Positions 6,575 to 20,163 of a stretch of DNA of 24,322 bases are shown piece by piece. The notes below the pieces were generated by a model, which did no database searches, was not told where the DNA came from, and worked only from the letters and a program-made list of their open reading frames with translations. This DNA comes from a virus: the IMG/VR virus record IMGVR_UViG_3300014911_000466. One strand, written 5' to 3'. A program made the translations under genes and the position numbers. How positions within the stretch are numbered: position 1 is the first letter of the stretch; each line of letters starts with the position of its first letter.

Positions 6575-7000
6575 TTATTTTTCATTTAGAAGCCTCCATT
6601 TTGGATGATTCTTTAATTCCTCCGCGTGCCTGCTACATACTGGATATTCCCTGTTTGTCGGCGCAAAAATGGCTGTGGTTACGGCTATGTTCTCGCAGAA
6701 ATGGCATTTCGGCGCCGAAACTTTATTTTGAATTAGAACTGTGCTGTGCGGCTCTGCCTTGATGAATTGGATGAGTGTAGGCTGTTGCTTTCTTTCTTCA
6801 CATTCCTGGTTGAACCTTTCTATGAGCATGTCGATGGCTTGAGAAAGAGATAGCCTCGTGTATTTGCGGACGTTATCCTTGAAAAGTTCCATTTGTCCTA
6901 CGCGAAGATAGAAAGTGTAGCATTTACGGTATTCATTATTTAAATTATTTAAATTATTTAATGACTCTTTAACATTATTATTATCTGGAGTGTAGGACAT
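6575..7000 (-). CDS. Hypothetical DNA-binding protein (RHH-like segment plus C-terminal CxxC...CxxH Zn finger)
   Basis: YTFYLR...SLSQAIDMLIERF; CHFC...CSRH. Confidence 0.55.
   Translation of the reverse strand: MSYTPDNNNVKESLNNLNNLNNEYRKCYTFYLRVGQMELFKDNVRKYTRLSLSQAIDMLIERFNQECEERKQQPTLIQFIKAEPHSTVLIQNKVSAPKCHFCENIAVTTAIFAPTNREYPVCSRHAEELKNHPKWRLLNEK
6935..6961. repeat. 3 x ATTATTTAA tandem repeat
   Basis: Exact copies at 6935, 6944 and 6953. Confidence 0.9.
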
Positions 7001-7169
7001 TTTCTTTCCTCCTATTTCTTAACATTTCATAAATGGAATAGCGAACCAGCTCGCTAACTGTTCTGCCAGAAGATTCGGCTAACTGCTCCAGCTGCCTTTT
7101 AATACGCGGCTCAACTCTAACTCTTAAAACGCAGTCTTTACGCTCACGAAAAACTCCAGCCTTACTCAA
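6981..7169 (-). CDS. Ribbon-helix-helix (CopG-like) protein
   Basis: VLRVRVEPRIKRQLEQLAESSGRTVSELVR. Confidence 0.85.
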   Translation of the reverse strand: MSKAGVFRERKDCVLRVRVEPRIKRQLEQLAESSGRTVSELVRYSIYEMLRNRRKENVLHSR

Positions 7170-12335: not shown

Positions 12336-12436
12336 AAACTCTCTTCTGTAACCTACCTATATATATAAAATTTGTGACCATGATGTTACAAATTTTAGAG
12401 TAAAATTATTATAGATTTTGTCACATTTATGTAACA
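12319..12436. promoter_or_regulatory. Divergent promoter region with repeated TGTNACA operator-like heptamers
   Basis: TATA-like runs near 12358-12370 and 12405-12413; heptamer pairs at 12319/12330, 12373/12384 and 12419/12430. Confidence 0.7.
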
Positions 12437-13749
12437 TGGAGTTTCGCATGCAGAAAAAATATCCTGAAGAAAAAGAAGATAAACATGCAACAGTGAGAAT
12501 TCCGAGAGAACTCTTAAATTCCATAGAGGAGTTCCTCAAAACAAACGATGCAAAAAATAGAGGATTACTTCACAAGACAGATGTAGTTACAGCAGCAGTA
12601 AGAGAATTCTTAGAGGAGAGAGGATTCTTTCCAAAACCATCGAAGCCACCATTAGAACATTTCAATTTAAACGAAGACGGAGTCATAATTATTGACAGAA
12701 TAATAGAGCCCGGAAAAGAAAGACTTATCCAAGTTTACTTTAAGCCACAAGGCATACTATGCGAATATCACAACTCAAACGACTGTTATCACATTCGCTA
12801 TGCATACACAAAAGAGGACATCAAAAAAGTATTAAGAAAACATTACAAAGAAGGTTGGAAAATTCCAGACCCAGACAATCCAGAAGAATGGTGGGGCTGC
12901 CCGGATTTGAACCGGGGTCCCGAGAGCCCGAGTCTGCTTGTTGATTGGCGAAAACTCCGTAAAGATTTTCTTGTTTGGTTGAATAGTCGAGATTTGGCTT
13001 TTGATTATAGGCGTAGTATTGTCAATTATTTGGATAGGTTTGCGCCGAAACTTCGTAATGGTATGGATGTTGTCCGTTTGTTTGATAGTTTATCGGCGGG
13101 CCAGAAGCATTGTTTATTGTTTTCGCTTAGGAACTTGTTTAATTTTTGTGAGTTGGCTGGTTTTGATTCTGCTTTTATTGATGGTTTGCGTAAGGCTTTG
13201 CCTAAGGATTCTCGTTTTGTGGATAGTTATGTTCCGAGTGAAGAAGTTGTTAGGCAGAGTATAGGGAAGTTGCGGCGCATTCCAGCCAAGTATAAGGCGG
13301 TCTATAGGCTATTGTTGGAGTCTGGGTTGAGGCTTAGGGAGGCTGTTAGGCTAAGTAATGAATTTCATGAATTATATGAAAAATCTGAAATGTATGAAAG
13401 GTTTGTTTGTGTTCCGCTTTTCTGGGTTCGAGCAAGCAAGAAAAGCTTTTATGCCTATTTTATGCGTGAAACCGCAAAAATGCTATGGAATAACGGAGAA
13501 AAGCTTAGTGCAGATGCTACAAGTAAGGTTTGTAGGCGGTATGGGTTGGTGGCTCCAAAATATTTGCGGAAATTCGTTTTCCATAAAATGCTTGAGTTGG
13601 AAATTCCAGAGGGAGTAGCCGACTTCATTCAGGGAAGGGCTCCCAAAACGGTAGGTGAAAGACATTATGCCAATCTTAAACGTTTAGCAGACAAATACTA
13701 TCCAAAATATGCGGAATACTTGGAGAGGTTAAGGAATTCTGTTCTATAG
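12436..13749 (+). CDS. int: SSV1/pTN3-type tyrosine integrase with N-terminal RHH and Zn-binding domain, interrupted by attP
   Basis: Catalytic motifs SGLRLREA, KYLRK, IQGR and HY; tRNA-antisense peptide WWGCPDLNRGPESPS inside the ORF. Confidence 0.9.
   Translation: MEFRMQKKYPEEKEDKHATVRIPRELLNSIEEFLKTNDAKNRGLLHKTDVVTAAVREFLEERGFFPKPSKPPLEHFNLNEDGVIIIDRIIEPGKERLIQVYFKPQGILCEYHNSNDCYHIRYAYTKEDIKKVLRKHYKEGWKIPDPDNPEEWWGCPDLNRGPESPSLLVDWRKLRKDFLVWLNSRDLAFDYRRSIVNYLDRFAPKLRNGMDVVRLFDSLSAGQKHCLLFSLRNLFNFCELAGFDSAFIDGLRKALPKDSRFVDSYVPSEEVVRQSIGKLRRIPAKYKAVYRLLLESGLRLREAVRLSNEFHELYEKSEMYERFVCVPLFWVRASKKSFYAYFMRETAKMLWNNGEKLSADATSKVCRRYGLVAPKYLRKFVFHKMLELEIPEGVADFIQGRAPKTVGERHYANLKRLADKYYPKYAEYLERLRNSVL
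12889..12935 (-). other. attP core: 3' half of tRNA-Pro(CGG) including CCA (47 bp)
   Basis: Minus strand AGA CTCGGGC TCT CG GGAC CCCGG TTCAAAT CCGGG CAGCCCC A CCA; anticodon CGG, T-arm and acceptor 3' strand present; 5' half absent. Confidence 0.9.
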
Positions 13750-13796
13750 CTTTGCTCTATCAAAATTTTTATGCCAAAACGACAACTTTACTTTAG

Positions 13797-14045: not shown

Positions 14046-14192
14046 CTTCACCATTTTCTTTCTATCCAGTCTGAAAAATCGAAATTTATATTACCTGATA
14101 TTTTTCGTATCTTCTTCTTATGTATTGCTGGAGTTGCAGTGGCGCGCGCTATAAAAATTTGACACGACGACGAGTGGTAACAATCTACAAAG

Positions 14193-14528
14193 TTACCATC
14201 TGAACTTCATCATAGGCCGTAATTTTGAAGCGTCTGGCAAATCATCTACTGTTTTTCCTATCTTATTTAGCCACCTTTGAATAACCCCCCAATCGTGAAT
14301 GCGCTTATGGCATTCATAGCAATAAAGATGCAAGTTTCCTTGTGCATCATGATGGAATTCGCCACCTCTACAAGAAACTTGGTAAGCTCTACCATTTTTG
14401 GAAACCCTTAAACTGCCTTGAAGCTTCTTTCCACAAAATTCACATGCAGTTTCGAATTGGTTAAATCCAGTATGGAATTTTAACCCTTGCTTCTCCAAAT
14501 ACTTCAACTTTTCATCGTCTAAGCCCAA
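14193..14528 (-). CDS. HNH-type Zn-binding endonuclease-like protein
   Basis: CEFC...HH...GNLHLYCYECHKRIH. Confidence 0.65.
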   Translation of the reverse strand: MGLDDEKLKYLEKQGLKFHTGFNQFETACEFCGKKLQGSLRVSKNGRAYQVSCRGGEFHHDAQGNLHLYCYECHKRIHDWGVIQRWLNKIGKTVDDLPDASKLRPMMKFRW

Positions 14529-15205
14529 AGCTTATCGGCCTCCCTTATTTTTGAAAGTATTTTCCTTGGTGACTTATGAACATAATTCAATGCTGTTTCA
14601 ATCCTTGCGAATTTCGCGAAGTCTTGCAGCTCAAATGGATCCATTACATCGCTTAAATGAGTAAGCCTTTGATGCCTAAACCAGTGAACCCAAATATTTG
14701 GATCCAACTCATGCAGTATCTGCCATGCTCTTTGACGAGTTAAATTGAACGGTTTTCTAATGCCTTTCTCTTTACAATAATTTAGCCAGTCAATAATGTA
14801 TTTGGATAATGGATCCAACAAGCGAATGTCAACGTGATCCATAACCACTTTTAGTCCATTCTTAGCTCTGCCCCTTTTCAGAACTCTTATTCGCATTCTC
14901 ATAATCTTCTCATTTTCGACTTCTCCAAATTGGAAGTCATCGAGAGTTACTCCTTCCCACACATCCACGGATCCGTCCGGTAACTTTTTCACACGGCCGA
15001 CAATCTCGCTGATACGTCTCGCACTTAAATAGAGCAGAGCAATCAAAGCCTTATTTCTCATCTTCTGCTCTTTGGGCGTTAATCCACTCTTCAAACCAAA
15101 GCCATAATCCATCATATCAACACGGGAAATCAAACCTTCAATATAGTTCCTTCTAACAGCCATCAAACCCTCAGTAGTTCTACGTTTAGCTCCCCCCTTC
15201 TTCAT
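14519..15205 (-). CDS. Second tyrosine recombinase (catalytic domain only, Xer-like)
   Basis: SARRISEI, HWFRH and C-terminal NY; the usual LGH is replaced by AKF. Confidence 0.85.
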   Translation of the reverse strand: MKKGGAKRRTTEGLMAVRRNYIEGLISRVDMMDYGFGLKSGLTPKEQKMRNKALIALLYLSARRISEIVGRVKKLPDGSVDVWEGVTLDDFQFGEVENEKIMRMRIRVLKRGRAKNGLKVVMDHVDIRLLDPLSKYIIDWLNYCKEKGIRKPFNLTRQRAWQILHELDPNIWVHWFRHQRLTHLSDVMDPFELQDFAKFARIETALNYVHKSPRKILSKIREADKLWA

Positions 15206-15226
15206 ATTCCCACCATCTAATGGCTT

Positions 15227-15254
15227 ACTTAACCTTATTAGCGTAAGGTAAAAT
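15227..15254. other. dif-like 11-6-11 inverted-repeat site
   Basis: ACTTAACCTTA TTAGCG TAAGGTAAAAT; the arms match at 9/11. Confidence 0.6.
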
Positions 15255-15264
15255 AAACATTATT

Positions 15265-16254
15265 TCACCCTTGAAAGGCTGTTTTCTTTTCTTTTTTAGG
15301 TTTTGTCTTAATTAAAGAATATATGGCTTGGTTTCTGGGGACGTTTTGGAGCGCTTGCCGTTTGTCGATTGCTTCTAAGACTTCTAAGCCTAAGTCTGTT
15401 AGGTCATACCAGTAGGTTGATTTTTTCCTTATTGGAACGATGAGGTCTCTTGCTTTGCATCGCGTTAATGCATCTTTGTATTTTTGAGGGAGCGCGTCAG
15501 GGTTTCGCTCACGGAACCGTTCATACGAAATCATGCCTTTCTCTCGAATAAGCTCCATTAGTTCGATGTCTTCTGGCTTCAGCCTTTTAATGATGTAGTC
15601 CACTCTTGACTCTGCAAGGGCATCTTTCACTCTTACTATTACCTCGTCGACTAAGGCCATTCTCATCTGGTCGTATTCTTGGTAGACATCTTTGGGTACA
15701 GGTTCAAACACGTTGGTTTCAATCCATTCTTTACGTCTTTTAGGTTTCCAGCCTTTATAGTCCTGGTCCCACAGTACTCTGTCATATTTGTAAACGCCTC
15801 TTTTAGGAATGAAAACTTCATGTGTGTATTTCTGCATGATCTGATAGGTTGGCTCGGTGGGATCCACCATAGTAGCTATTAATACAGCTAAGCGAGTGGC
15901 CAAAACGTCGAATCCTCCTTTAAACGCGTCCCAAGCTCTGTCATATTGGGTTTCAGCCTTGTTGCTGTGGGCTCCGAAATCATCGTAAATCAAGATTGGC
16001 ACTCGCATGTGAAGCTTGTTTAAGGTAGGCACTCTTTCAGGCTCGCCTTTCTCAACTTTATACATTAGCCCCGAAAGATTAAATACGAAGCTTTGCAGAA
16101 CCTTGTCCCAGTCTTTATACCATGTATATGCAAGCTGCATGGCAAACGTTGTTTTTCCGCCGCGCTGCACGCCCCAAACCACAATCCACATCCATTCATC
16201 ATTAAGAATAGCATTCCATATGTCCCTTACTACACGCGGCCTTCTCTCCGTCAT
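15265..16254 (-). CDS. P-loop ATPase with C-terminal winged-helix-like domain
   Basis: Walker A GVQRGGKT, Walker B ILIYDD; C-terminal wHTH-like region ending YDLTDLGLEVL. Confidence 0.8.
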   Translation of the reverse strand: MTERRPRVVRDIWNAILNDEWMWIVVWGVQRGGKTTFAMQLAYTWYKDWDKVLQSFVFNLSGLMYKVEKGEPERVPTLNKLHMRVPILIYDDFGAHSNKAETQYDRAWDAFKGGFDVLATRLAVLIATMVDPTEPTYQIMQKYTHEVFIPKRGVYKYDRVLWDQDYKGWKPKRRKEWIETNVFEPVPKDVYQEYDQMRMALVDEVIVRVKDALAESRVDYIIKRLKPEDIELMELIREKGMISYERFRERNPDALPQKYKDALTRCKARDLIVPIRKKSTYWYDLTDLGLEVLEAIDKRQALQNVPRNQAIYSLIKTKPKKEKKTAFQG

Positions 16255-19936: not shown

Positions 19937-20131
19937 ATGAAGTTTGACCTGAAAGAGTTGATTGTATTCTTCGTAGTGTTTGTTATTGGCAGCTGGATAG
20001 GAAACTGGGTAAACTCAATGTTCAATCTGCAGCCGAATGACATGCTGAGCACAATACTTGTGATGTTCGTGCCAGTGCTCATAATTTATCTGCTATGGAA
20101 GAACTTCGGAGAGAAAGCGGCGGCAACCTAA
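19937..20131 (+). CDS. 64-aa hydrophobic helical hairpin; candidate spindle-type capsid or matrix protein
   Basis: Two hydrophobic helices, Asn-rich loop, basic C-terminus; strong SD. Confidence 0.55.
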   Translation: MKFDLKELIVFFVVFVIGSWIGNWVNSMFNLQPNDMLSTILVMFVPVLIIYLLWKNFGEKAAAT

Positions 20132-20145
20132 AATTTTAGGTTGCC
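20122..20145. other. Perfect 24-bp palindrome over the stop codon (possible attenuator or mRNA stabiliser)
   Basis: GGCAACCTAAAATTTTAGGTTGCC. Confidence 0.7.
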
Positions 20146-20163
20146 CTCCAAGGAGGTATCAGC

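Follow-up and report, generated by a model that had tools for sequence, protein, structure and literature searches.

A catalytic-domain-only tyrosine recombinase and an adjoining 28-bp palindrome as a candidate multimer-resolution module of an archaeal element

Recombinase genes located next to their own target site constitute known resolution systems of large plasmids (PMC5357621), and in XerS/difSL of streptococci and lactococci the recombinase gene likewise adjoins its own near-palindromic site, the two forming a single module (PMC5357621), as we propose for the locus described here. An earlier sequence-only reading of this locus had drawn the parallel with the site-next-to-gene arrangement of XerS/difSL, and the published account bears it out. 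The available sections of a 2021 review of archaeal tyrosine recombinases list several families in which PF00589 is the sole Pfam domain or none is recognised, and report neither activity nor site for them (PMC8371274). In the literature that we searched, we found no description of a mini recombinase paired with a site, and no multimer-resolution system of an archaeal plasmid or virus. To our knowledge, no plasmid- or virus-encoded multimer-resolution system has been characterised in archaea. Here we analyze such a pairing in a stretch of 24,322 nucleotides (the window), which is probably a metagenomic archaeal element, its host being assigned from homologues. The features that concern us are collected in Table 1.

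Table 1. Coordinates of the recombinase, its site and neighbouring features in the window
Feature	Position	Strand	Basis or remarks
SSV-type integrase, 443 aa, first recombinase of the element	12418-13749	plus	PF16795, 2e-35; phrog_5127, 4.9e-53
HNH-like zinc-finger protein, 111 aa	14193-14528	minus	translation motif EFHH...N...CYECH..IH
P0001, mini tyrosine recombinase, 228 aa	14519-15205	minus	ATG at 15205; R64, K110, H174, R177, Y208 invariant
Core site, 11-6-11 inverted repeat	15227-15254	.	matrix score and homologous sites
Left arm of site, ACTTAACCTTA	15227-15237
Spacer of site, TTAGCG, asymmetric	15238-15243
Right arm of site, TAAGGTAAAAT	15244-15254
Upstream flank	15255-15271	minus	BRE/TATA-like element; third half-site-like arm 15261-15271; AAA+ stop codon overlap
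AAA+ ATPase, fusellovirus B251 / 'DnaA-like' type	15265-16254	minus	phrog_5484, 1.1e-14; directly upstream of P0001

By its catalytic residues and its fold, P0001 belongs to the tyrosine recombinase superfamily (PF00589 / DNA_BRE_C). The catalytic residues listed in Table 1 are invariant across an alignment of 31 homologues that extends down to 31% identity. Position 199, which aligns with XerD H270, is Phe in the P0001 subclade and Trp in most other members; Phe at this His/Trp position is tolerated in Flp. In the AF2 model (pLDDT 88, pTM 0.84), a disordered basic N-terminal tail and a single helix (residues 19-31) are followed by the catalytic domain; the β-sheet of this domain is enlarged, with five strands, and Y208 is followed by a C-terminal helix. 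The core-binding domain, which other tyrosine recombinases use to clamp DNA, is absent, as judged by the lack of any N-terminal Pfam domain and by the one helix that precedes the catalytic domain in the model. The alignment and the model together confirm the earlier description: R, HxxR and Y are present, the His/Trp position is occupied by F, and a core-binding domain is lacking. The best Foldseek matches are the XerH-difH, Cre-loxP and XerA complexes (E ~1e-5, probability 1.00), and they cover the catalytic domains alone. At the sequence level, XerD is the best match among solved structures (2e-5), and PF00589 is borderline for P0001 (27.0 bits against a cut-off of 27.1, at the C-terminal end of the domain only) and is passed by its relatives.

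We considered two established families for P0001 and rejected both. Membership of the Xer family fails on profile cut-offs (NCBIfam XerD, 21.5 against 329.6 bits; XerA_Arch, 19.6 against 220 bits), on domain architecture and on the housekeeping distribution of Xer. An SSV-type (suicidal) integrase is excluded by the absence of PF16795 from P0001 and by the location of the site outside the ORF, the attP of such integrases being inside their gene; nor does P0001 share any sequence similarity with the element's own SSV-type integrase, and it is therefore a genuine second recombinase. In a database search, close homologues of 200-285 aa numbered about 50, almost all of them metagenomic and a few from Bathyarchaeota assemblies; one homologue, P0023, is encoded on a Bathyarchaeota contig of 1.68 Mb. 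When 1.8 billion representatives were searched with a profile, 409 relatives were recovered at E < 1e-10, many of them 170-230 aa long, and the longer ones have no recognisable core-binding domain. Of 301 Bathyarchaeia species genomes sampled, only 5 carry a member of the family, and we therefore regard the mini recombinase as accessory and not as a replacement for Xer. In the phage collection the window had no DNA match and neither P0001 nor P0023 a protein match, while a distant relative, P0074, matched only full-length (374-aa) integrases of archaeal pleomorphic viruses; a scan of a viral contig collection recovered no relative.

Some members of the family (P0010, P0012 and the L001/L008-L010 homologues) carry a CxxC...CxxC zinc-ribbon insertion (PF13240/PF13248) in the β-hairpin region after the catalytic Lys, at alignment columns ~165-200. 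The insertion may provide additional DNA contacts and in this way make up for the absent core-binding domain. A conserved small partner gene able to supply that domain in trans was not found beside the homologues.

The core site lies 21 bp from the ATG of P0001, within the 59-bp gap that separates this gene from the AAA+ gene, and its two arms, ACTTAACCTTA and TAAGGTAAAAT, agree at 9/11. The 28-bp 11-6-11 repeat that had been reported 21 bp upstream of the recombinase start is thus exact in its coordinates. The sequence-only reading had also matched both arms at 8/11 to the E. coli XerD arm; the arithmetic is correct, but a match of this kind is too weak in AT-rich DNA to serve as evidence of homology. 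The window palindrome alone is not significant, since the 24-kb window contains 18 palindromes that reach 9/11 or better with arms of 11 nt and spacers of 5-7 nt; the significance of the site comes from its conservation in relatives. A half-site matrix scores it at 23.4, against 14.3 for the next best candidate in the 24-kb element, and when the matrix is trained without the window the scores are 22.3 for the site and 12.1 for the runner-up. The element holds one strong copy.

Further palindromes were observed near and away from the site. One of them (15245-15271, 9/11) overlaps the right arm and the AAA+ stop codon, which creates a third half-site-like arm, and in several relatives (L005, L018, L014, L002) the sequence just upstream pairs with the left arm as a further palindrome, AACGTTTA-T-TAAACGTT. 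Such an overlapping palindrome could offer an additional place for binding, or could merely reflect the TATA region. Two other strong palindromes of the window are found at 12368-12395 (10/11, AAATTTGTGAC ... GTTACAAATTT), between divergent genes at the integrase start, and at 20120-20147 (9/11, GC-rich).

The conservation of the site was analyzed in 54 loci encoding P0001 homologues. Almost every homologue is preceded, at 10-160 bp from its start codon, by an 11-N5/6-11 palindrome, and the consensus across loci is ATTWAACGTTA-N-TAACGTTWAAT. In a leave-one-out scheme, where the half-site matrix applied to a locus was trained on the remaining lineages and the locus was scanned over its full length (1-24 kb), the best full site of the locus fell no more than 200 bp upstream of the gene in 18/18 non-redundant loci, including L049 with only 25% identity; the joint probability of these positions by chance is ~1e-22. 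Two distant loci outside the training set behave in the same manner, L059 with a perfect 11-6-11 palindrome ~25 nt before the start codon and L058 with a near-perfect 11-5-11 palindrome upstream of the gene. Conservation beside homologues had been named with the sequence-only reading as a check on the site, and the site passes it. No other conserved repeat accompanies the recombinase gene.

The inner arm bases differ between lineages, and do so symmetrically: CGTTA/TAACG, GGTTA/TAACC, TGTTA/TAACA, CGATA/TATCG and CATTA/TAATG. We read these paired changes as the signature of a symmetric dimeric binder co-evolving with its site. The spacer measures 6 bp in the window and 5 bp in many relatives, and the spacers cacag, gacag, ttgtg and gtgtc recur between lineages in either orientation; the polarity of the site relative to the gene is not fixed. 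A separate observation concerns one closely related group, in which L010:3684-3710 and its counterparts in L008 (1680-1706), L001 and L009 are identical over 127 nt but for three spacer positions in L010 and one base in L001 and L009. The three changes in L010 convert CAATC to its exact reverse complement, GATTG, between perfect arms. This core flip could have arisen by hairpin template switching or could be a footprint of the recombinase.

The AAA+ gene, the recombinase gene and the HNH-like gene are co-directional on the minus strand, and the HNH-like gene overlaps the recombinase stop by 10 nt and is translationally coupled to it. The 111-aa HNH-like protein has no Pfam or NCBIfam match, and almost nothing matched when Pfam was run on the neighbouring genes of the homologues; tRNA genes were found neither in the window nor in 15 loci. 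We compared vent metagenomes (runs), as assembled contigs, with the window. In runs X2 and X5, from two independent studies, there is a relative that is ~97% identical over the AAA+ gene from 15256 rightwards, and its homology to the window breaks off precisely at the site's outer boundary (15255/15256). The 30 nt past the break form a different 11-6-11 site with symmetrically changed inner arms (CAGTA/TACTG versus CCTTA/TAAGG in the window), and over the recombinase region the only cover comes from pieces that differ by 10-14%. More generally, the related contigs of X2, X3 and X5 give no cover, or only divergent cover, of 14072-15255. The HNH-like ORF is not conserved beside homologues, yet in these contigs it is replaced together with the recombinase and the site; the three therefore travel and diverge as one cassette. 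These contigs give the clearest sign that the site follows the recombinase and not the neighbouring AAA+ gene.

Two other observations bear on how the elements are related to one another. Two small ORFs at 6575-7169 (minus) of the window recur in L010:7925-8513 (141 aa at 94% and 62 aa at 69% identity). The mini recombinase on this contig of 17.8 kb shares just 44% identity with that of the window, and the pattern points to mosaic exchange among elements. The 3' half of the integrase gene (13000-13750) is covered in all four runs at several-fold higher summed contig depth, and by many diverged contigs; this pattern suggests that many related integrase alleles, or att-bearing host copies, are present in the samples.

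The site also overlies a probable promoter. Read in the direction of the gene, a purine-rich run and ATGTTT in the upstream flank run into the left arm and create the BRE/TATA-like sequence TTTATTTTA; when 21 loci are aligned on the site, most of them show a purine-rich run followed by (A/G)TGTTT or TAT entering the AT-rich outer left arm. The flank and the left arm together are likely to be the BRE/TATA-like promoter of the recombinase gene, and the conservation of the left arm could be partly due to this role. Transcription starting ~25 nt past the TATA-like box is predicted to begin at the outer end of the right arm, with a leader of 10-40 nt that often contains GGAG or GGTG. Because the site spans the TATA-like box to the predicted transcription start, a bound recombinase would occlude its own promoter. 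An autoregulatory site, one of the options raised by the sequence-only reading, would fit this layout.

Based on the observed anatomy of the site, its conservation, arm co-variation, single copy and cassette inheritance, we propose, at about an even level of confidence, that P0001 and the palindrome form a self-contained single-recombinase/site module that resolves episome multimers and represses its own gene. The 228-aa protein would be an active tyrosine recombinase that consists of the catalytic domain alone, and would recombine DNA at its own 28-bp palindrome. Each 11-bp arm would be occupied by one of two monomers, with cleavage and strand exchange taking place over the asymmetric spacer, which is 6 bp long here and 5 bp in many relatives. 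Since there is one site per element, two circular episomes joined by replication or by homologous recombination would hold two sites as direct repeats, and recombination between these would restore the monomers, as in Cre/loxP, XerS/difSL and the resolution systems of large plasmids. Recombinase bound at the site would shut off its own promoter. The invariant catalytic residues and the likeness of the fold to XerH, Cre and XerA support this proposal. A private dimer-resolution system had been suggested from the outset, and agrees with (i) the single site per element and the inheritance of enzyme and site as a unit, and (ii) an integration function already supplied by the SSV-type integrase, together with a site that stays intact and internal in a chromosomal remnant (L011, see below).

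Several points weigh against resolution. Lacking a core-binding domain, the enzyme may need a partner or may only bind, and in the P0001 subclade Phe replaces the His/Trp residue. Resolution systems usually include something that imposes directionality, and none was recognised here. A second, gene-less copy of the site in one host genome (G040) hints at other uses. For Huangdivirus_16, a Bathyarchaeia provirus, a published supplement calls the 208-aa recombinase beside the same AAA+ gene the integrase (PMC10848311).

In a possible but unlikely alternative, the module serves integration or rearrangement: the palindrome would be attP-like, and the recombinase would insert the element or an island at a similar chromosomal site, or would recombine two chromosomal copies. 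A recombinase of this kind is the only integrase listed for Huangdivirus (PMC10848311), and the family is found in chromosomal contexts at L011, L058 and L059. The window element, however, already has an SSV-type integrase, and at L011 the details argue against insertion at the palindrome. There the gene has chromosomal neighbours (M32 carboxypeptidase, PPIase fusion, MFS transporter) and belongs to a remnant of ~2 kb, where an intact site is flanked by an AAA+ fragment and the recombinase; since the site is internal and in the episomal arrangement, insertion did not occur through it.

The sequence-only reading had also suggested a second integration route through the host dif, and had named the chromosomes of candidate hosts as a place to look. 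In the host assemblies G001, G002 and G046 the gene-adjacent site is the sole match and no second site with ≤3 arm mismatches is found, and G002 has a separate, ordinary 323-aa Xer-like gene; the suggested route through host dif is not upheld. The site is thus single-copy in three of the four host genomes tested, G040 being the exception. In G040 (L062:2745-2905 and L063:7861-8021) a gene-less second site region of 161 bp and 89% identity lies on another contig, includes the first 5 recombinase codons and adjoins GIY-YIG and type I R-M genes. The copy that bears the gene occupies a defence island, between GmrSD and RelA/SpoT-like genes on one side and UvrD-like and Cap4 nuclease genes on the other. 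Both copies speak for an integration or rearrangement module, and they may represent a site pair linking two defence islands; but because homology extends on both sides of the site, the duplicate is not an attL/attR hybrid.

It is rather improbable that the palindrome is an operator only, bound by a dimer that represses its own promoter and recombines other DNA or none. Such an operator would account for a site that reaches, in most loci, from the BRE/TATA-like element as far as the predicted start of transcription, and symmetric co-variation of the arms proves only a dimeric binder. Against this, all catalytic residues are invariant, the Tyr nucleophile included, an argument that catalysis is under selection; recombinase core sites have this same 11-5/6-11 geometry; and the recurrence of spacer sequences in either orientation between lineages is not needed by an operator. 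That the gene is accompanied by no second conserved repeat also counts against recombination elsewhere.

The AAA+ neighbour enters into two further readings. In one of them, the mini recombinase might dispense with a clamp because a B251-type AAA+/wHTH ATPase loads or activates it at the site, an idea framed by analogy that we consider quite doubtful. FtsK controls XerD, and AAA+ partners control transposases. Through a partnership of this kind, a gene conserved in spindle-shaped archaeal viruses would gain its first assigned function, and an ATPase-dependent recombinase would be defined. Alternatively, and very unlikely, the palindrome could be the origin or loading site of the upstream AAA+/wHTH protein and be linked to the recombinase by adjacency alone. 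The B251/DnaA-like gene is indeed directly upstream in four lineages, the window included, and as a truncated remnant in a fifth (L002/L011), besides Huangdivirus; in the L001/L008/L009/L010 group, L047 and L049 the upstream AAA+ proteins match phrog_1979 and, in two cases, phrog_5484 as well. However, the palindrome is present without an upstream AAA+ gene in six loci (L004, L006, L012, L039, L041, L059), it is perfect in L002/L011 although the AAA+ gene is truncated, and the X2/X5 relative keeps the AAA+ gene while its site has been replaced with the recombinase.

The same tracking of the recombinase, and not of the AAA+ gene, speaks against a role in replication initiation, the remaining suggestion of the sequence-only reading. 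Tyrosine recombinases leave a 5'-OH and a 3'-phosphotyrosine, and since their nick leaves no 3'-OH, it cannot prime rolling-circle synthesis; a rolling-circle nickase was rejected on this chemistry. The chance that the palindrome is accidental, or a hairpin terminator of the upstream gene, is negligible in view of the leave-one-out positional test and of sites that occur without a co-directional upstream gene, the 18 comparable palindromes of the window notwithstanding.

Two other activities of tyrosine recombinases were considered and set aside. Telomere resolvases act on linear genomes, at targets that are fully palindromic including the centre, and are ruled out by spacers that are asymmetric (TTAGCG) and often of odd length (5 nt). 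An invertase is ruled out by the single copy of the site in the element.

With the resolution module as our preferred reading, one catalytic-domain-only archaeal family is now paired with a defined, co-varying site of 27-28 bp, and a small protein and a short oligonucleotide now suffice for a direct test of function. The family amounts to a natural set of orthogonal enzyme/site pairs, and raises the structural question of how a catalytic domain alone holds and synapses DNA. Our analysis also suggests that 'integrase' labels on ~200-aa recombinases of Bathyarchaeia viruses may need revisiting. The nearest case is Huangdivirus_16, a Bathyarchaeia spindle-shaped provirus that, according to the supplement, encodes a 208-aa tyrosine recombinase 117 bp from a B251-like AAA+ gene (PMC10848311). 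It has the same gene pair and belongs to the same host class, a likeness drawn from the listing and not from sequence; the recombinase is annotated there as an integrase, and the listing describes no site (PMC10848311).

Finally, we compare the locus with characterised systems. It has two properties of a single-recombinase/site module: the gene is linked to a cognate repeat, as seen in 18/18 loci and in the co-replacement of the cassette, and the 24-kb window holds one site. One site per replicon is also found in XerS/difSL. XerS, however, is a chromosomal, housekeeping protein of 356 aa with a core-binding domain, is controlled by FtsK and acts on a difSL with an 11-bp centre, whereas P0001 has 228 aa and no core-binding domain, and is sporadic and carried on a mobile element; a sequence relationship of P0001 to XerS beyond the superfamily was not found. 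FimB and FimE are tyrosine recombinases of ~200 aa with a very small N-terminal part, and so resemble P0001 in size, but they are bacterial invertases whose two target sites lie in inverted orientation on either side of a promoter, in contrast to the one site per element here. The archaeal XerA/dif system shares with our locus one homodimeric recombinase and an 11-6-11 site, and Xer models give the best, though weak, sequence matches; XerA differs in having a SAM-like N-terminal domain, in being chromosomal and near-universal, and in a dif that is not beside its gene (PMC2958812). Cre/loxP of phage P1 and the plasmid-borne resolution recombinases resemble the module in being encoded by a circular element with a simple symmetric site beside the gene, although the site of Cre is 13-8-13 and the enzyme carries a large clamp domain at its N-terminus. 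On our best reading, which proceeds by analogy, the module would work like the known single-recombinase systems, with an enzyme that lies outside Xer and is uncharacterised in archaeal elements.
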